Source: Trichinella spiralis
Lineage: Eukaryota
Length of the DNA: 64,000 bases
Reading direction: 5' to 3'
NCBI RefSeq assembly: GCF_000181795.1
Contig: NW_003526944.1
Span: forward strand, 5,417,816-5,481,815
Shown: in pieces, positions 2,950 through 15,438 of the stretch
Numbering within the stretch: position 1 is the stretch's first letter
Layout: each line of letters begins with the position of its first letter
Notes under the pieces: model-generated
The model's input: the letters and a program-made list of their open reading frames with translations, nothing else
Told to the model about the DNA's origin: nothing
Databases searched by the model: none
Program-made: the position numbers and the translations under genes

Positions 2950-3625
2950 AGCCGGTTTTAATGCTCTTCTTCGTCTGTCATCGTATTGAAACGCCATTGT
3001 TCATTCGCCGCACATCGTTCGCCTACAATCATTTGAAATGAGTTTCTGGAGCGACTAATAGTCGCCTCTGGAAAATTTACATAAAGTTCATTTCTACTGA
3101 TTATCAAGTATGAAACGAATTTTCATTTAGTTAAACCAACACTCTCATATAGTTCAAGTCATATAAGCACTAAAGCAAACAAATTGACATATGGTGAGGG
3201 CAAATTTGCATACAAACTAGATAACAGCCGCATGCTTGAAGAGATNNNNNNNNNNCTTTGGAATGACTGCATATATCCTCTAATCATCTGCATCTAATTG
3301 CTGAATAATTTGCTCCTTTTATTTCTGCTTTGCATAATATGTGAAAGTACCGATTTTAATGCTCTTCTTCTTTGTCATTCTATTGAATCGTATTGTGTTT
3401 CACCGCACATCCTGCGCTGAAACTTCCCGAAATGAGTTTCTGGAGCGACTAATAGTCGCCTCTGGAAAATTTACATAAAGTTCATTTCTACTGATTATCA
3501 AGTATGAAACGAATTTTCATTTAGTTAAACAAACATTATTCAAGTCATATAAGCACTAAAGCAAACAAATTGAAAATGTACTCAAATTTGCATACAAACT
3601 AGATAACGCCCATGCTTGAAGAGAT
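2950..3625. repeat. ~290 bp direct duplication (~2950-3245 and ~3350-3625) flanking the N gap at 3246-3255
   Basis: Identical core gaaatgagtttctggagcgactaatagtcgcctctgg...catgcttgaagagat in both copies; ends are more divergent. Confidence 0.8.
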
Positions 3626-5752
3626 AACATTCTATCATATCTTAAAGCATATCTTGCTTTACATTTAACGCGAAAATGAATTGATCAGATGTCGTTCAAC
3701 CCTGCTATAAGTCAACAGTCTGTGTGACTGGCGCTCTGCTAATCTGATGGCAATTTTCAAATGGCCCAATTTGCATAAAAGTCAGGCAATGCTCATGCAG
3801 CCAAATAAACCGGCGTAAGTAAGTTGAATGTGCTACACAGAGATGAATTAGGACATAATCTCAACATAATATAAACAATGTGCCCACGTTGGCTGCGCCG
3901 CTTGATCAACAAAATTAACTGGATGAAAATTTTGATTCATTTATTTTCTTGATGATGTAAAATTTTAAAAACAATATTAAATGATAATGAAATTAAATAA
4001 TTTATGTATGAAAACAGTATTTTTCTGACCTGCATAATAGAGAACACTGTGCGCTTAGTGATATTCCACCTGTTCAATTCAGAATGAAATTGAATGCTAT
4101 AAGCAAGTGAAAATTGAAAAACTTATCGTCTTTTACAGTTAAATCTAGATTATTACGCAAAGTAATAAATTGAAAAATGAATTTGATCAGAGCCTACAAT
4201 GTATAGATTTATGTACTTAAGAATTCTGTATAAAATTGTTGTGCATATTTATTCAAAACCTACGTAAATACAGAAAAATACTGACGCTGAAATATACAAA
4301 GCACAAAAAGTATGAGTACAAAAAGTTTTGACATTGAATTTTTTTCTGAATACAGCTTTTTTCCCTTGCAGTTAAGTTACGCACCGCCACCGCTAATCAC
4401 ACACCAGTGAAACGAGATATCAAATATGGATGCAATGTTCGTTCTTCTCTGATGAGGTCGTTTCTTTCAAACCTTCTTATCAGTAATTTGGCAATTAGTA
4501 TACTGTATAGAACTGTATTTATAATTATTAATTATATTTCCATGCTTTCATTTTTGAAATATACTTCAACTTAATAGATGATGATGTGCATAATAGATCG
4601 ACACTTTGCACGCAGAATTAAAAATTCTTTAAGTGAGATAGAAATTCTTATAAAGATAAATTTTCACCTCACTTCAACATGAAAAGAAAACAAAAATACA
4701 GTTTTACTTTGAAAAATATCTTACTTACATCTAACATATTACAAACTTCACTAACTTAATTAAACAAAGGAATAACTCCTGTTTATAGAATCATCCCAAG
4801 CCAAACGTTACAGAATCAGCATAGAAAAAAATCGCATTTACCCTTTGTGTTCACATGTTTTACTTCGTGTTGTCTGCGTTTTCACTTTTTCTTTATCCAT
4901 TTTTATTCCTGCAAAAGTGATATTAAATGAAAAATTTTGATGCTTTAAACACATAGTAAAAGATGCAACAAATATGAAATTGAATTTTCAAATATATCCA
5001 ATTAATTATTTTCAATTAAATGATAGTTATTTACAAAATAAGTATCAAATGCTTTGAAAAAAACGAAACCAAAATAGAAAAATATGATGCCTTTCAGCAA
5101 TTGAAAACTGACTTCAGTAGTTACTGAACGCCACTAATAAAATCAGAGAATCTTCATAGGGCTGCCACTTGCCAGAAACCAATACAAGATTACTGAGAGT
5201 AAGGAAATTTTTAAAGGACTCTGATTTGCATATTGTGGCGTTAGAAATGGGTTTTAGTGCATTTGAAATTATTCTCAAAGATGAATGCTAACCTGCCGCT
5301 GATGTAATGGAAATTATAGATATTCATGTACAAAGAATTAGTAATGTAGCAGATAGAAACGGTTACATTAAACTTATTTGAATCTGATTTGAAAAAACAG
5401 TTCAAATGTCTTGTAAAATTCACCCAATGATAACTATTTAAAAGTTCAGAAATCACCTTCACTTTCAGAGATATCATCATTTAAAAATTCTGTCAAAATA
5501 TAACTTTTTGACAGAATACGTCATAACAAAAAATTTACTTAATTAAAATATGCCATCGCATGTCTGAATCTGAGATTTGAAAATTCAAAAATGGCCTACA
5601 TAAATAAAACCCATGGCGAAAGCTTTTTAAAAAAATATATAAGCGCACTCCCATCACGCGCTGTAAACAAAATTAAGCAGAGAATCAACATTAAGTAATT
5701 TATCGAAAATTTCTAATTATGTAAAATTTCAAAAATGTTAACACAATGCGAT

Positions 5753-5894
5753 AAAAGGATAGAGGAACATGCTGAACACGCTTGCATCTTTATCAAACTT
5801 CACTCTCTATCCAACTCGTGCCCATTTTATAAGGGTGCACAAGCCGGCATATCAACCTTCAGTGGAATACGAACATGCGGACGTTTCCACTGCC
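5753..5894 (-). ncRNA. Candidate structured ncRNA, array copy 1 (unknown family)
   Basis: 5' GGCAGUGGAAACG...CGUAUUCCACUG hairpin; stem CCGGCUUGUGC/GCACGAGUUGG with 3 G-U pairs; 3' GGAUAGAG...CUCUAUCC followed by UUUU; TTTAAATA at -30..-23. Confidence 0.6.
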
Positions 5895-6249
5895 AATTTC
5901 AAGGAAAACTTTTATATATTTAAAATTAAAAGTATAAATCATTAATGCTTTTTAATTTTTTATTTCTGACCCAAATTTTTGGAATTTTATAATATTTTTA
6001 TTTAAATAATGCCCATTGAAATTCTTTTCAAATACACATTCTTTTCACCACAAATACTGAAATTCTTTTCTTGCATATTTGAAATGATTATTATTCTTTA
6101 AAGCAGTTTCATTTTTGATAAAACCTTTATATGAAAAAAAAGTGTGAAATACCTGCAAAACGCAATGTTGAAATGTTCGAAAATTAAATTTATATACGCC
6201 TTATCATCCACAGTCCACCGCACAGTGTTAGCAATGCTCAGCGCACGAG

Positions 6250-7086
6250 TTATGACAGACAGAAGGAACAGGGACTGCGGAAGGAGTGCTTTGGAAAGTT
6301 TATTAGACATAGATAATTTTTATCCTAAAATGGAACAAACTTTAATATCCGACAATATGAGTACTTTGGAACCACGTGCAGTGTGCATCAATGCGGTTGG
6401 AAATAAAGAATGTTCTGAAGCAACATCTGAAACTGTTCTTGAATTTTTACTAGAAAACCTTAATGAGAAAAGCAGTGGCATTTCCAAAAAGTTGTTCAAT
6501 GCGATGAAAAATAGAATAGAAGAAAGCAGAAGCGTATCACTGTGCGGCTTATTGTATTACATTAATAATCTTTCTTCAAACTACGTTTGCTCATCAAGTT
6601 CAAGTTGTATACTAACCTGGATGAATAAACGAGGCATGAAGGTTACAGCGAAGGAACTGCCTGATAGGATGTTCAAAATCCAGATCAGAATAAACATTAA
6701 CGGATATGGTAATGATAGCGAAAAAAGGGATCTTGATATAAGTGAAAGTATCGCGGACCAATTTGATACACTGATCAGAAAAGGAAAGTATTTTAAATGT
6801 GACGCGATGGATAGTTGTTTTGGTAAAGACATTATGCAAATTATCAAGAACGAAATGGTTTCCTTCGAGCCGATAGCAACGTCCAAGGACAATACAAATA
6901 TCATACGATGCACTTATAACAGTACCAACGACATCCTGTCAAGCTGAGGGAAGCTTCAGCGCAGCTGGACGTTTCGTTACAATATTACGATCGTCTTTGA
7001 AAGACAAAACGATTGATACGCTTTGGTCACTACTTTCACATCTTATGCAAAGCAGAAATAAAAGGAGCAACTCACTTAGCAATTAA
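6250..7086 (+). mobile_element. Frameshifted C-terminal fragment of a hAT-superfamily transposase
   Basis: ORF 6144-6947 contains LEP...LEFLLENL...LFNAMKNRIEESR...GLLYYINN. A shifted frame from ~6920 reads VPTTSCQAEGSFSAAGRFVTILRSSLKDKTIDTL, matching the hAT dimerisation motif P-x-T/S-S-x-x-x-E-R-x-F-S...R-x-x-L. No TIRs seen. Confidence 0.8.
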
Positions 7087-7492
7087 ATGAATTTAATAAA
7101 TGGAAATATTCAATTAATTGGATCAATTAAAAAAAATGGAATGCCTTCCAGCAATTTAAAATAGACTTCAGAGGGCAAAAGTCACCAATTAAAAATTCAG
7201 GTAAAATGCAAACTGCCGGGCTGCAAGCCAACACAAAAAAATTTGTTCAGACAAAACGAGCCTACAGATGTCAAAATTTGAAAATTCAAAATTAAAAAAT
7301 AACGCACATAAATGGAACTCAGGAAAAAAGCTTTTCACATAAATGTAAAGACTTTTGCTTATTGCTTTAAAAAAAATTAAACAAACAAAAAATGTAATTT
7401 ACCAAATATTTCAGATGATGCAAAATTTCAGAAATAATAATGCAGTGATAAAATAAAGTTGAAAAACTTTCCGCACAGAGTATTTTGGTTGG

Positions 7493-7645
7493 AAAACAAT
7501 GCAATTCAGTAATGAAACAAGATATTGAAAGGTTTCATATCTCTGTTCTGTTGAATGGCGGACTTGTTTGCTTCACTTTGTAAGAGTGCGCAAACCACCA
7601 CGTCAACCACCAGTGGAATACGAACATGCGGACGTTTCCACTGCC
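7493..7645 (-). ncRNA. Candidate structured ncRNA, array copy 2
   Basis: Same 5' hairpin; stem GUUUGC-GCACU/AGUG-AA-GCAAAC; long 3' hairpin at 7504-7556; TATAAATA at 7668-7675; ends at UUUU. Confidence 0.62.
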
Positions 7646-8613
7646 AATTGAAAAATATTAATTTTAATATTTATAATTAGAGCATAGTTTTGTTTTTCAT
7701 AAAAGATTTTTTATGAAAGAACAGCATATATAATAAAACTAAATGATGGAAGTGCTCATAAGCAAAATTACTATACGCGTTTCTGACTAATGTATTGCTT
7801 TAAAAAAAAATATTCTTTTCTCCATATCAGATGCTACTTCGACTATATTATAAGATTTGCAACATGAAAATGAATAAATACATTTTATTCAAATACTATT
7901 CAGTAGTTTCTTAGCTCAGCTTAACTCTCTTATTTTCGCTCATTACTCTACATGTAATGAATAATATTAATTTGCGACAATTAAATTTCACTTAATTTAT
8001 TCAATTTTTGAATATAAAAAATTGTAACTGGTGCAGAAATATTAATTGATTTCAGTAATTCGCTTTTAAAAATAATTGGTTTATAATATATTTGTTTTCT
8101 TTTAAAAATATAAATACATGAACAAACCGCTGTTGATTTTAAACATAAAATTTTACACAGAACAGATCTATTCTTAATAATGCTTAATATAATCATGTTC
8201 AATGATTATAAATTAGCGGACGTAATTGAAATAATAGCAATTCATGTAAAGTAACCGGATAATTTAGAGAGTGCATTGCATTAAAAAAGAATAATCATGT
8301 GCAAAAAATAGAGATACCGTGCCAAATTCAACCAATGAAAACAATTTGAAAATTCAAAGATGACCTTGATATTTAAAATTCAGTCAAAATATAAATTACC
8401 GGGCAGAAAACGCCATAACAAAAAATTCACTTAGACAAAACACGCCCCGCATGTCTGAATTTGAGATTTGAAAATTCAAAAATGACCCACATAAATGGAA
8501 CTCATGACAAAAACTTTTCACAAAAATGTAAAGACTCTGGTTTTTCGCTTTGACAAACAAAATTAGCAAATCAAAAATGTAATTTATGAACTTCTTTTAA
8601 TTATGTAAAATTT

Positions 8614-8789
8614 AAAAGAATGCAAATGCCAAGTGTGAAACGAAAGCACTTATCAGAAGTATGTGCTTTTTGGCGTACTAGGAATTCTGCTAGCATTCCT
8701 CTTTGGCTACATCTGCGCGCATTGTAAGAGTGCACAAATGGCCACATCAACCACCAGTGGAATACGAACAAGCGGACGTTTCCACTGTC
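8614..8789 (-). ncRNA. Candidate structured ncRNA, array copy 3
   Basis: Same 5' hairpin (starts GACAGUGG); stem CAUUUGUGC/GCGCAGAUG; TATAAATA at 8812-8819; ends at UUUU. Confidence 0.6.
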
Positions 8790-8983
8790 GAGTGAAATGA
8801 ACTAAGTTTCATATTTATAATTAAAGCAAAGTATTATTATTCTTGATTTTATTTTTGATTTTTAATAAATTTGTTTGAATACAGTATATTAAAAAATACT
8901 AATATCATGTCAAGAAATTAATTTTATAATAAAAATTTCAATTTACGTCTAGCATGAAAATAAAAATATTTCATTTTATCTTT

Positions 8984-8987
<4 letters not shown>

Positions 8988-9013
<26 letters not shown>
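8988..9013. repeat. (TA)n microsatellite
   Basis: Perfect TA run. Confidence 0.95.
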
Positions 9014-9014
<1 letters not shown>

Positions 9015-9501
9015 GATTTTTGCTGTTTTCTCTATGAAATTTATTTGAAACGTTGCAAAGCGTAGATTGCTTGCAGCCCTTCAGTGCTTTTTGTGTCTAA
9101 GGAAGACTGCTCCTCTAATGTTAGAGGTACTCAATCTGAACATCAACCACCAACTCAATAGCAATTAAATGAATTTAATAAATGGAATTATTCAATTAAT
9201 TGGATCAATTAGAAAAATGGAATGCTTTCCAGCAATTTAAAATAGACTTCAGAGGGCAAAAGTCACCAATTGAAAATTCAGGTAAAATGCAAACGATGCA
9301 GACTGACACAAAAAAATTAGCTCAGACAAAACGCACCCACGCCTGTCAAAATTTGAAAATTCAAAAATGACGCACATAAATGGAACTTAAGCAAAAAGCT
9401 TTTCACATAAATGTAAAAACTTTTGCTTATCGCTTTTAGAAAAAAAATTAAACAAACAAAAAATGTAATTAACCAAATATTTCAGATGATGCAAAATTTT
9501 C

Positions 9502-9681
9502 AAAAATAATACTACGAAGTGATAAAGAAGTGTCGAATACTTTACCCTAGAAGTGCTCTGTTGTGTCACTGAGGGACATAAAGCATCTTTGCTTTCGTCC
9601 TTATTTCCACACTTTGTAAGAGTGCAGAAACCCTGAAATCAACCACCAGTGAAATACGAACACGGAGACGTTTCCACTGCC
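9502..9681 (-). ncRNA. Candidate structured ncRNA, array copy 4
   Basis: 5' hairpin with a G-C to G-U change; 11-bp stem GUUUCUGCACU/AGUGUGGAAAU; TATGAATA at 9704-9711; ends at UUUUU. Confidence 0.6.
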
Positions 9682-9922
9682 AATTAATATAATATAATTT
9701 TTATATTCATAATTAGAGCAAAATATTATTATTTGCGACATTTATGTTTGATTTTTAATAATTTTGTTTGAACACAACGTATTAAAAAAGAAATATCCAT
9801 GAAAAAGTTAATTTTTTAAATACATATTTAAATTCATGTGAGCATGAAAATAAAAATATTCCATTTCATTATTAACATATGATTTTTGATATTTAATGTA
9901 TCAGTTCCACTTGAAAAGTTGT

Positions 9923-10090
9923 AAAACGTTCACTGGTAGGTAGCATTTCAGCACTGCTTGCAATTTCAAGGGGGCATTAAGCTGGATGCTTGTACTTCTT
10001 CACAACACCTCCTTTTGTCGTGTTACCATTGGAAGTATTCAAACCGCCACATTATCCAACAGTGGAATACGAACATGCGCTTTCACTGCC
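9923..10090 (-). ncRNA. Candidate structured ncRNA, array copy 5 (divergent subfamily)
   Basis: Shortened 5' hairpin GGCAGUGAAAGCGCAUGUUCGUAUUCCACUG; TATACATA at 10113-10120; different second and third stems; ends at UUUU. Confidence 0.45.
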
Positions 10091-11915
10091 AGTTGTAACG
10101 AAATAATTTTCATATGTATAATTATGCCAAAATATTATTATTCGTGACATTTATTTTTCATTTTTAATAAATTTATTTGAATACAACATTTAAAGGACAG
10201 AAATATCATATTAAAAAAATTTATAATCAAAATTGAAATTTACTTGCAGAATGAAAATGAAAATATTTCATTGCATCATTTACATGTGTGATTTTTGCTA
10301 TTTTCTGTATGAAATTTATTTGAGAAGTTATAAATGGTGAATTTTCCGTTCGTGTTCAGCGCTTTTCCTGTCGAAGACCATTTCTACTCAAATTTTAGAG
10401 GTATTCCAGTCACCACATCAACCAACAATGGAATACAAACAAGGGAACGGCTGGACCAACTGTAGCATTTAAACTGCTTTTATATTTATAATTAAGAGTA
10501 TAAATTATTGTTGTCATTTAATTTTTTATTTTTAACCCATTTGTTTTGAATTGCATAATATTTTTATTTAAATAATTGCCGTTTGCATATATTGAAATTC
10601 TTTTCTTTTATATTTGAAAAGATTATTATCATAAAAAGCACAGCTTTGTTTTTGATAAAATTTTTTTTATGAAAAAACGAGTGAAAATAATAAAACTAAA
10701 TGGTAGAAATGCTTGCAAACAGAATTAATGTACGTGTTGCTGTCTAACGTATTGTTCTAAATTAAGAATTAAATGTGGAGGAAAATCTGCACAAAAGGAA
10801 AATATTGTTGTCTCCATATTTGATCATACTTCGACTATATTCTTAGATTTGCAACATGAAAATCAGTAAATACATTTTATTCATATGTTATTCCACAGTT
10901 CCGTAGCTCAGTTTAACTCTTCTATTTTCCCTGATTACACTACATGTCATGAATAATATTAACTTGCAACAATTGAATTTCAATTTTTGAATATCAAAAG
11001 AAGAATTTACATTTAGTCGTAATCGTTGCAGAAATATTAAGTGATTTTGATTTTCAAAAAATCCATGCAATATAATACGGTTGGACTAGTTATACGTTAA
11101 GCGAATGAGAGGTGCTAGCAAAGAAATGGATTTTAAGCAACGCTGATTTTCACAGTATACGCCTAGCGTTCATCACTTGAATTCAACGCTGTATTAGATT
11201 TCCTGCTGAATAAATAATAAATTCTTACAGCATCTCAACCAAATGTAGGATATAAAAAATTCAGCTTCTGGAAGATGCTCATTTTTTCCCCATGTTATTT
11301 CACTTTTAATAATAATTAGTGTATATTTGTTTTCTTTTCAAAAACTTAAATACCTTAACAAACGGCTGTTGTACAAAAGCATGAAATTTTGCATAAAACA
11401 GATCTATTTTTAATAATGGAAAACAGAATCATTCTCAATGATTATAAATTCAATATCTATGTTCAACAGTATTTTGATGTAATTTGAAAATGAAATGTAA
11501 TTTACAGAAATAGTCAAGTTTCTATTATTTAGAGATAAATTTGTTCGTACTGTTGTAAAAATTGATTACTCAATTTCAATCAAACTTTTGATGCTTGTCA
11601 GGCATTTTTTTTGAAAACATCTTCAAAATGCACTGGGAATCATTGAAATGTCACTTTGTTTGTTGAAGAATAAAAGAAATGTTAAATGTGATTGTAGAAA
11701 GTTTTCCAGAAATAGAAAAAAAAATTTAAGTTATATTCAAATTAATTTATTATTAAATGAAATATTTTTTTTATCACAATGCCTTCGAGAAAAAACAATT
11801 TGGCTATCTGGTTGATGAAATTCGTTAAAAATGCAAAACAATATATACAACAAACAACAAATTTCATTTGATTACGACTTTCAACTTAAATTTTATGAAA
11901 AATATCTATCCAATT

Positions 11916-14900
11916 CTAATCATCAGAATCGTTTGAATCGGAAGAATTTCCAATGTCTATATCCCTGTCTGGATCTTCACTTACATCTAAGGCAACTGAT
12001 GAATTTGCAGCAGAATGATCTCGTTTCAAACCTTCCACCATTTTTGAGCATGTCGGTTCAGAATCATCTTGAACAACCACCGTTTGTTGTTGCTTCTTCC
12101 ACATTTTCGCTAAAGCCAATAATTTAAGATTTGCAGTGCCTGCTTCGTCTGCCGGAAATATATAATCGTAATATTCTTCCCAACCAATTTCAGTCTAAAA
12201 TATTGAATAAAAAGAAAAACAAAAATAAAAGAACTATTTTTAAATTCAAATAATCATACCCCATTTTCTGCAAATGCTTTTCTTCTTTTCTTCACTCGCT
12301 TCGGCATTTGCGATTCAACAGCATTCAAACTATCCGCATCACCATGTTCCTTCTGCAAAAAACAATGAATGACACTCAAATTAAAAATCCACTTCACTTA
12401 CGTATTAATTGTTGTGCAAAATTTCACAATATTATACATTCAATTGTAATGGTAAATAAAAATAAAATTCCATACAAATCACATTTCTTACTTCGAATTC
12501 TCTCCACGTTTGCAATAGCAAAACTCGTTCTTCTTTACTTTCACAATTTTGCAAAGCTCTGTTCGCTTCTTGGTACACAGATCTGGCGCGGCCAACGTTA
12601 CCATCGTCTTCAACAGAAAGCTCAAAACGAGCAAAACTAATCCAAACCTATATTAATTTTTAAAAAAATCAAAAAATAACAATTAAAAAGTACAAAATAA
12701 TTTATTTCTACCTTGACTTGCTGGGTTTTTGAAAGTAATCGCTTATACAACTTTCTGGCCAACCCGTATTCACCTTGTCCAATTTCAAAATCGATGTACG
12801 ATTTCCACAATATTTCCGGCATATCCATCGTCTCCCACGAAATGGCTAAATCATAAATCGCCCGAGCACGATCAGTATCACCCAAAAGGGTTTCCAATTC
12901 TGCATACTAAACATCAAAAGCATAAGTATGAATTTGATGTATAATTCATTTCAAAAATCACTTACTTTAATCCAACTTGCACAATTTTCAGGACAAAATT
13001 CAAGCAATTTGCCATACAATATTCGGCAACGGTCAAATTCACGAAGCCTCAATTCTAAATCAATGTACTCACGAAAAAGTTTCTCTTTTGGACACCTTCC
13101 AATAGCATTTCCCTGAAATTAGATTTATCGCAATAAATACAATCTTATTACGAATACGTTCACGGCATGTAAGTATGTATACTAAAATATGCATACTAAA
13201 ATTTTTCTCGCTGCCTTTACATCCAACTGTCTTATTTCGAAATAGGCAAACAATAGCCAAACTTTAGCAAAAGTGAACTTTTTGTGCGGAATCACTTCCA
13301 AACACATTTTGTAAACTTCTCTAGCGCGTTCCATGTCGTTGGCTTCCAGTTCTTCATAAACAGCATAATTAATCCATAAATAAATGTATCGTTTCCAATA
13401 AATTTTCACCTAAAAAAACAAATTCGTAATATAATTTGCAATTGCAATTATTGTATATAGATATTTTTTTAATACAGGTTTAGGTGGAACATTAGAAACA
13501 GCTCTTTCGTAAGTGTCACGTATGAGATCAGCATCGCACTGCTCACTTTCCAATAATCTTAAATAATCAAACCAGGCGTCATAATTGAAAGAATTCTTTT
13601 CCAATTCTTCTTCATAATGTCTTCTCCGCTTGCCGACTATCACATGTTCAATCCCAAATTTTTCGCCATATTTTTTCTCATGAATAGCATAGGCCTTTTG
13701 TATTTCGGCAAGTTTATCTTTCGGCAAATTGTCCAAGGCATATTTGTAAATTACTCGAGCACGATCGTGCTAAAACTTTTTTGCAAATTGCATAAAAATA
13801 ACACAAATAAAGTAAAAATAAATTAATAAACCTCTTTTTGATTTTCTTCAAATTTTGCAAACGCTATCAAAATATTTTCGTTCATGTGCTGCAAACCAAA
13901 GTATTCTACAGCACGCTCAAATACCATACGAGCGTTGGTTATTGATTTTTGACGCTGTTCAAATTTCGCATAACGAATCCAATTCTTCGGATCCGGATGA
14001 ACATTTATAAATCGCTGCCAAATATTCCTAGCACGATCCACTTCTTTGTAACGCATCTCGAAATTGATGTACGTATTCCAAGCTTGTTCACCTGGTTCCC
14101 ATTCCATCCAACGCTCAAAAACTTGCCTAGTTCCAGGAATATTGCCAAGCATCTCTTCCATATAAGTGTACTTCAACCAAAACTGTATAGCACGTGGTAA
14201 AATAGAGATGGCACGATCCCACACATTGCGTGCGTGATTGATTTGCCGATTGCGGATTTCCATTTCAGCGTACTGCAACCACAGTGTTATGTTCCTGTGA
14301 TCAACATCCAGAGCTCGTTCGAACACTGACCGACTTCGTTGCATTTCTCCCTGACTTTCTTCCCATTTCGCATATTTAATCCAATTGCAAATGCTATTTC
14401 GATTTTTACGTATGCAATCTTCGTATTCTTTTCTCCGTCTGAATTGATACTCTTTCAATTCTTCTGGATCGCTGATCTTTTTCTTTGGAGGCTGAAATGA
14501 AAACAAAAATGAAAAATAAAATAAAATATAACCAATCAATCAACTGAAAATTGTAATACCGGAGGTAAAATTTCCAAATCTCGTTCTTTTGCTTCACGAA
14601 GAAGTTGTTCCGCAGTTATCTGAATTGGTGCTGGTGCTTTGTTTTTCACCTAATACAAAATAAATTGAAAATTGCTTTACAAAAATACATTCCTATATAT
14701 TTATATGAATTTTAAACAAATTCCGAACACTTACCGTTAATTTTGAAAAAAACATTTCACTAAATAACGCAATATAAAAATATACAAAAACACACAGTGC
14801 CGTCAAATTAGTTCAGTTGCAAGCTGTTTATTTGATTAAAAATTTTACCTGCAACCACTGCACTACAACATACCTCAAAATTTAATATATACATATATTA

Positions 14901-15438
14901 ATACACACATTAAAACATTTAATAAATGTAAAACTAACCGAACAGAAAACTGACATTTCGTATAGTATACTAAATGCAACTAAAAATCTCACACGTAGAA
15001 CAGAAACATGCAAACTATGAGTTAGCTAAAAAATCGATCTAAAAAATTCATATTATCACAACTATATGTAAATTAAAATTTATAAACAGATTATTTAACA
15101 GTTCATGACATTTCCATATGTAATAAAGCAACATATATCTGAAAAAGTTCACGAAATAGAAAAAATAATATAGATCAAAACTTTCTACTTCAATTACGTT
15201 ATATTTATTACGTCAGATAAATATACCATTAAAAACATTTCAATTATTATAATAAATATAACGGAAATTTCAATATATGACAAAAATTATAAAAAAAAAC
15301 CAAACAAACAGTCACATTTATATTTTCATAAAAGCGTAAATATGCATCATAAAATTAAAAAGTTCACATGCATTTTTAACATACCTTCATTGCTTTTTTA
15401 GCTAAGCGTGTCAAACTATCTTGGGCGTTCGACTGCAT
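11916..15438 (-). CDS. CRNKL1: Crooked neck-like splicing factor (HAT/TPR repeats; Clf1/Syf3), multi-exon
   Basis: Exon 1 15438-15385 ([18 protein letters not shown]); exon 2 14649-14560 ([23 protein letters not shown]); exon 3 14491-13832 ([27 protein letters not shown]...); further exons include [10 protein letters not shown] and end at stop 11916-11918. Confidence 0.97.

Follow-up and report, generated by a model that had tools for sequence, protein, structure and literature searches.

Nematode sbRNAs and Y RNAs, as far as the accessible portions of PMC4450293, PMC2527325 and PMC4726728 describe them, come from multiple genes with their own presumed Pol III promoters, end in oligo-U, carry a GUG-CAC stem and combine conserved stems with a variable domain; sbRNA loci show an upstream GTATA element together with an oligo-T end (excerpts of PMC2527325). 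We analyzed a stretch of 64,000 nucleotides from Trichinella spiralis (the window) that harbors a cluster of units alike in these respects but differing in architecture, the variable domain lying 3' of two side-by-side hairpins, whereas that of sbRNAs and Y RNAs is a loop enclosed by paired ends; the cluster RNAs also have neither the bulged-C terminal stem nor UUAUC. According to PMC7445429 (in part), Y RNAs, common in the secretions of other nematodes, have not yet been described in T. spiralis, where the only search for them used BLAST with C. elegans and human queries. For a candidate Pol III RNA family that BLAST of this kind would miss, the cluster fixes the coordinates, the strand and the predicted ends, so that existing small-RNA data and one Northern can test it.

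The closest working analogy is TMER4 of MHV68, which acts independently of miRNAs as a scaffold plus a stem-loop of nonspecific sequence, as stated in the accessible text of PMC4838037. Unlike the MHV68 TMERs, the units described here have an upstream TATA, no tRNA-like element and no A box followed by a B box, are cellular rather than viral, and carry 3' hairpins too weak for typical pre-miRNAs. EBERs and adenovirus VA RNAs (same excerpt, PMC4838037) are structured Pol III RNAs of similar size (160-172 nt) that act whole, but those are viral, and the cluster has no Rfam match. The UM2 tRNA-like promoter-snoRNA transcripts of C. elegans (PMC2527325, in part) likewise place a constant transcribed 5' element ahead of differing downstream RNAs that end at oligo-T; the cargo of UM2, however, is snoRNA and its A and B boxes are separated by 33 bp, whereas the tails here contain neither box C nor a terminal ACA.

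We lean toward the view that the cluster encodes a new Pol III-type structured RNA family that acts whole, with a protein-binding 5' domain and a 3' domain that is at most constrained to fold. We surmise that the units form a tandem small RNA gene family in which Pol III would read from an upstream TATA to the first T4, yielding predicted RNAs of 142-179 nt in which the two conserved 5' hairpins are likely a protein-binding module and the 3' tail is likely constrained only to loose folding. The RNA would then serve as a ribonucleoprotein scaffold, like Y/sbRNAs, EBERs or TMER4, and not as a precursor of copy-specific guides. Of this picture, the repeats, the fixed TATA spacing, the T4 and the pattern of divergence are shown by the sequence; the folds are predictions, and transcription, the polymerase, protein binding and the mutational mechanism are inferences. 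That the units are transcribed, summed over all the readings that imply it, we regard as quite probable; the scaffold itself is probably a genuine RNA of Pol III type that belongs to no established class. If real, it would extend the structured RNAs of clade I nematodes by one family and offer a naturally occurring example of a 3' domain that outpaces the adjoining flank in divergence.

Copies, predicted ends and flanking signals

The element lies on the minus strand in four intact copies (copies 1-4), one partly decayed copy (copy 5) and two remnants (copy 6 and remnant c3b), as follows:

5753..5894, minus strand: copy 1, predicted RNA of 142 nt to the first T4; variable part 5757-5813
7493..7645, minus strand: copy 2, predicted RNA of 153 nt to the first T4
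8614..8789, minus strand: copy 3, predicted RNA of 176 nt; variable part 8618-8704
9503..9681, minus strand: copy 4, predicted RNA of 179 nt; variable part 9507-9600
9923..10090, minus strand: copy 5, 168 nt predicted; TATA block 10113-10120; variable part 9927-10031
10375..10463, minus strand: copy 6, degenerate, the 5' arm of hairpin 1 gone
9056..9160 (borders approximate), minus strand: remnant c3b, 5'-truncated, without hairpin 1 and TATA block; aligns with copies 5 and 6

A sequence-only reading of this DNA had placed five copies at 7493..9610; copies 2-4 do lie there, but copies 1 and 5 fall outside. The hairpins that it quoted exist, all 10 motif halves looked up being found at the expected copies on the minus strand. 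A core 16-mer occurs 6 times in the cluster (5860 to 10441) vs. 0.46 expected in the whole window, with one match at 3 mismatches outside the cluster (56978). In a covariance model built from copies 1-4, those four matches are by construction (copy 1, 105 bits); copy 5, which is outside the model, scored 42.7 bits (E 1.8e-11) and copy 6 scored 14.3 bits (E 0.024), and of the remaining 7 of the 13 matches, 5 are echoes on the plus strand of hairpin 1, while 2 are weak and lie elsewhere (E 0.064 and 0.82). Copy 5 retains the TATA block, a shortened hairpin 1 and the T4, its hairpin 2 is broken and its whole-RNA folding z is +0.93; it is either a decayed copy or a subtype. The comparisons that follow are based on the four intact copies, all of them paralogs.

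Pol III genes with external promoters are usually marked by a TATA near -30 and a T4 end. A TATA-like block begins at -30, counted from the G of GGCAGUGG, without gaps in copies 1-5; in the intact copies it is found at:

5917..5924, minus strand: TATA-like block (-30..-23), copy 1
7668..7675, minus strand: TATA-like block (-30..-23), copy 2
8812..8819, minus strand: TATA-like block, copy 3
9704..9711, minus strand: TATA-like block, copy 4

The block is 78% alike vs. 61% for the spacer behind it (10 pairs), and the first T4 follows +1 at a distance of 138-175 nt, T4 runs and TATA-like words being common anyway in DNA of 70-85% AT. Inspection by eye revealed no PSE-like motif upstream that is common to all copies. 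The fixed -30 TATA, the T4 and the pairing kept in hairpin 2 (see below) support the earlier proposal that each unit is a small-RNA gene of Pol III type, constant in its 5' part and variable in its 3' part. In the RNAalifold structure, the 5-6 nt that precede the predicted +1 also pair with GGUUG, conserved behind hairpin 1 (7640-7651 and 7603-7608; likewise at the equivalent positions), and the true 5' end could therefore lie a few bases further upstream.

The two conserved 5' hairpins

The scaffold stands out by GC content (0.44-0.52 vs. 0.15-0.25 in the flanks) and is predicted to fold into two hairpins, given here for copy 2:

7611..7643, minus strand: hairpin 1, RNA positions 3-35, 11 pairs
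7554..7600, minus strand: hairpin 2, RNA positions 46-92, pairing retained across divergent copies

The first 45 nt, comprising the region of hairpin 1, are 84-93% identical among copies 1-4, above the 63-87% of the downstream flank. The pairs of hairpin 1 are invariant in these copies except for one G-C to G.U change in copy 4; since they are unchanged, they provide no covariation information, and hairpin 1 could be a DNA palindrome. By z, the plus strand scores better for this hairpin in copies 1-3, and in copy 4 the hairpin is outcompeted in the full-length prediction (ensemble probability 0.02).

Hairpin 2 is 62-78% identical among copies 1-4. In whole-RNA ensembles, 31 of the 32 cells in columns 51-58 are paired, with double-sided changes in 4 of the 8 columns and 7 G.U cells that would be mismatches if read on the other strand, in a table that leans towards pairing because it was taken from each copy's own predicted fold. 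Pairing between a copy's own arms averages -15.9 kcal/mol vs. -9.4 kcal/mol with arms swapped, ranking first among 24 assignments, and the plus-strand arms average -10.0 kcal/mol; the folding z ranges from -1.7 to -3.6 on the minus strand, the plus strand being weaker in each of the 4 copies. Depending on the copy, 8-31% of shuffles reach a 6-of-6 register as well. Registers differ between copies by small indels, and RNAalifold, run on a plain MAFFT alignment, credits just 2 of 25 pairs with double-sided change and returns a covariation term of +0.56, which is unfavourable. We rejected transcription of the plus strand, since both the better folding of hairpin 2 and its G.U pairs belong to the minus strand. 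Neither a pseudoknot nor a Y-like internal helix is conserved among the copies, and both were rejected.

Three of the seven units are decayed or truncated, hairpin 1 is without covariation, a stretch of the flank looks like a repeat family, and template switching can make and mend stems in one step (PMC8794818, in part); these features would also fit a non-working relic, be it a tandem repeat in decay or a remnant of SINE type, that contains a DNA palindrome and whose hairpins are made and rewritten by template switching in replication. We nevertheless consider such a relic unlikely, as judged by the following: 1) conservation of the first 45 nt exceeds that of the flanks; 2) the one-strand G.U pairs of hairpin 2 are unlike the product of reverse-complement copying; 3) the TATA spacing is fixed across diverged spacers; 4) neither an A-box-then-B-box order in the first 60 nt nor an A-tail was found; and 5) the copies were duplicated along with their flanks, not inserted singly. 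The tRNA-, 7SL- or 5S-derived head of a SINE with internal A/B boxes was likewise not found: with consensus patterns, an A-box-like word is present only at +37 in 2 of 4 copies, and no B-box within 1 mismatch. As regards the target-site duplications of dispersed single insertions, the copies, which stand in tandem with shared flanks, have only AT words of 6-8 nt in common within the window.

The variable 3' segments and the downstream flank

Returning to the reading of an RNA that acts whole, the variable segments, measured from hairpin 2 to the re-alignable flank, span 53, 100, 61 and 72 nt in copies 1-4, with a GC content of 0.32-0.44. None of the 6 pairs aligns better than chance (z -1.1 to 1.8), but the earlier description of the segments as unrelated needs qualifying: the 3' end of the copy 4 segment aligns with copy 2 DNA past the first T4 of copy 2 (p=0.022; z=3.0), and the copy 5 segment consists of sequence found in the remnants copy 6 and c3b plus an insertion of ~36 nt between AAGCA repeats. 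Beyond the segments, the copies share a flank:

8320..8642, minus strand: downstream flank common to copies 1-4 (shown for copy 3), starting at 5757, 7454, 8642 and 9528

This flank aligns in 6 of 6 pairs, at 68-87% over the first 100 nt (z 7-14) and 63-79% over the next 150 nt (z 7-17.5). With the tails at chance and the next 250 nt at 63-87%, the previously noted contrast between flank and tail is real for the downstream flank; it does not extend to the upstream flank, where positions -200..-91 align at chance level in 5 of 6 pairs and similarity is confined to the vicinity of the TATA block and to the pair of copies 3 and 4. Because the tails diverge faster than the flank, relaxed constraint alone is insufficient; the pattern calls for a hotspot of mutation, homogenisation of the flank or diversifying selection. 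A homogenised flank together with hairpin-prone tails could give this contrast without selection for different cargo. We propose that the tails turn over by insertions and hairpin rewriting, with template switching, which creates and repairs stems in single events (PMC8794818, in part), as a candidate mechanism.

The segments had also been said to still fold, which holds only weakly, in combination. With segment borders set when the hairpin positions were already known, folding against shuffles gave z of -2.11, -1.52, -0.95 and -1.47 in copies 1-4 (p 0.043, 0.09, 0.18 and 0.09), -0.90 in copy 5 and +2.13 in copy 6, with a combined Fisher p of 0.013 for copies 1-4 and 0.030 with copies 5 and 6 added. 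Taken together, the tails thus narrowly exceed shuffled sequence, the comparison on which the sequence-only reading had staked its case, but singly the z's are modest, with only 1 of 5 segments at p<0.05; z<=-0.9 was also seen in 6 of 20 flank windows, and a z of -1.5 is reached by 12.7% of 150 background windows. The tails display no minus-strand preference in copies 2-4. One window in the downstream flank of copy 4 folds at z -2.65. An imperfect palindrome of ~40 nt is found downstream in the flanks of copy 4 (9388-9424) and copy 2 (7325-7361) and is not kept in copy 1.

The copy 2 hairpin had been singled out as a good pre-miRNA:

7504..7556, minus strand: copy 2 variable hairpin, 53 nt, -9.1 kcal/mol, GC 0.28, MFEI -0.61

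A typical cut-off for pre-miRNAs lies near an MFEI of -0.85. In the full-length copy 2 RNA, moreover, the outer 5' arm of the variable hairpin is taken by hairpin 2, and we view this predicted hairpin, the best candidate among the tails, as a poor pre-miRNA; the tails of copies 1, 3 and 4 have short or branched stems only. Matches of the tails to the rest of the window do not exceed chance matches of 11-15 nt, and no shared guide box adjoins them.

These properties bear on a payload reading, in which the constant 5' part would drive expression and processing and each tail would be its own small RNA or guide, TMER-like and possibly secreted. Tails that cannot be aligned next to a well-aligned downstream flank are what diversifying selection would give, the combined folding p points the same way, and T. 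spiralis is reported to produce and secrete abundant ~22 nt RNAs (PMC7445429, in part) and to possess 213 novel miRNAs (PMC3212509, in part). We find this reading doubtful, however, and the earlier assignment of the 3' part as a miRNA or guide payload did not hold up: 1) the copy 2 hairpin is weak, its base being competed away by hairpin 2, and the other tails have the stems described above; 2) there is neither a tRNA-like leader (by ARAGORN and Rfam) nor a shared box beside the tail; 3) Rfam yielded no miRNA or snoRNA match, snoRNA scores being far below gathering only; 4) tail folding shows no strand preference in copies 2-4; and 5) by eye, the tails match none of the miRNAs listed in the text of PMC3212509 itself (15 conserved, 20 novel). 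Some tail could already figure as a 'novel miRNA' in T. spiralis miRNA lists, and if the tails were processed cargo, the cluster would be a cellular counterpart of viral tRNA-miRNA cassettes. One may speculate further, with equally low expectation, that this intracellular muscle parasite evolved a TMER/EBER-like cassette in which a constant Pol III chassis receives different 3' hairpin modules, by exchange or by rapid rewriting, with selection on each module for a partner or small-RNA product of its own; some modules might even act inside the host cell.

Known RNA families and the surroundings of the cluster

Over the whole window, Rfam returned 0 matches at gathering score and ARAGORN 0 tRNA genes; over 5500-10700, Rfam searches up to E 10 gave 6 weak matches, all far below gathering, with no Y RNA or sbRNA among them. 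The presence of multiple copies with a TATA-like element, an oligo-U end (both in sequence only) and constant plus variable parts, as well as an AGUG that pairs with CACU in hairpin 1 of copies 1-4, in line with the A/GUG-CAC/U upper-stem motif (PMC4450293, in part), would suit rearranged Trichinella Y/sbRNA homologs that bind Ro60 or support DNA replication, but we judge this quite improbable, given the Rfam result, a 5' end that pairs inside hairpin 1 (-9.1 to -12.9 kcal/mol) rather than with the 3' end (-4.0 to -5.4 kcal/mol) in 5 of 5 copies, UUAUC missing from the scaffold in 5 of 5 (copy 4 has it only at position 157), and a sole candidate for the bulged-C lower stem that is internal (RNA 10-19/36-48), competes with hairpin 1 and reaches -8.5 (copy 2) and -7.0 (copy 3) but merely -2.7 (copy 1) and -3.2 kcal/mol (copy 4).

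Other families fit no better in the features looked for. Of the snoRNA boxes, TGATGA and an ACA before T4 were each found in 0 of 5 copies. Spliced-leader RNAs carry a splice donor followed by an Sm site, AT4-6G (PMC7986045); on the minus strand, a purine-flanked Sm site is missing from 5 of 5 predicted RNAs, as is AGGT from their first 35 nt. Rfam models of self-cleaving ribozymes (HDV-like, hammerhead, twister and others) gave no match, and a possible pseudoknot helix is not conserved. Pattern scans of metagenome and viral contigs, collections not expected to contain Trichinella, yielded 0 matches. Six motifs of the window had 0 occurrences in the main texts of the searched literature and topic searches brought up no description of this family, within a scope that leaves out most subscription papers, including the original sbRNA survey.

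Turnover of the cluster itself may have proceeded by unequal crossing-over, leaving decayed copies and patchwork flanks. The upstream flank of copy 4 is closest to that of copy 3 (76-79%) and its proximal downstream flank to that of copy 2 (87%), and these mixed affinities, judging from the alignments, point to unequal exchange between copies. Contig sets from four low-depth sequencing runs, of unrecorded kind and patchy depth, were compared with 5400-15000; they contain no intron joints, leave the crooked-neck exons uncovered and were left out as expression evidence. Several distinct contigs match 8320-8505 in the distal flank and run on into other sequence, with a summed depth of 15.6-20.6 vs. 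0-4 elsewhere, depth here being no measure of copy number; this hints at a repeat found elsewhere in the genome. The same segment contains a direct repeat spaced 122 nt (8343 and 8465), has many variant contigs and looks like an unnamed repeat family. Contigs that match 7676-8216 but differ in up to about 13% of their letters, with an insertion of ~34 nt at 7804, suggest that further copies of the region upstream of copy 2 exist outside the window. A single contig joins 7653 to 10818, a weak link because one side of the joint spans just 21 letters.

Between copies 1 and 2 lies an ORF on the plus strand (6135-6947, 270 aa stop-to-stop) for a Trichinella-only hypothetical protein with several paralogs; over 6234-6944 it shares 100% identity with such a protein of T. 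spiralis, it has no Pfam match, and it may be a mobile-element fragment inserted in the cluster. Near-exact local duplications at 1500-1555/2088-2142 and ~3030-3245/3430-3625 sit beside N gaps (1555-1564 and 3246-3255) and are possibly assembly artefacts. Exons of the splicing factor crooked-neck (CRNKL1; 13410-14539, minus strand) flank the RNA cluster, the exon at 13826-14536 being 100% identical to the Trichinella crooked-neck protein, and provide a usable synteny anchor in other Trichinella species.
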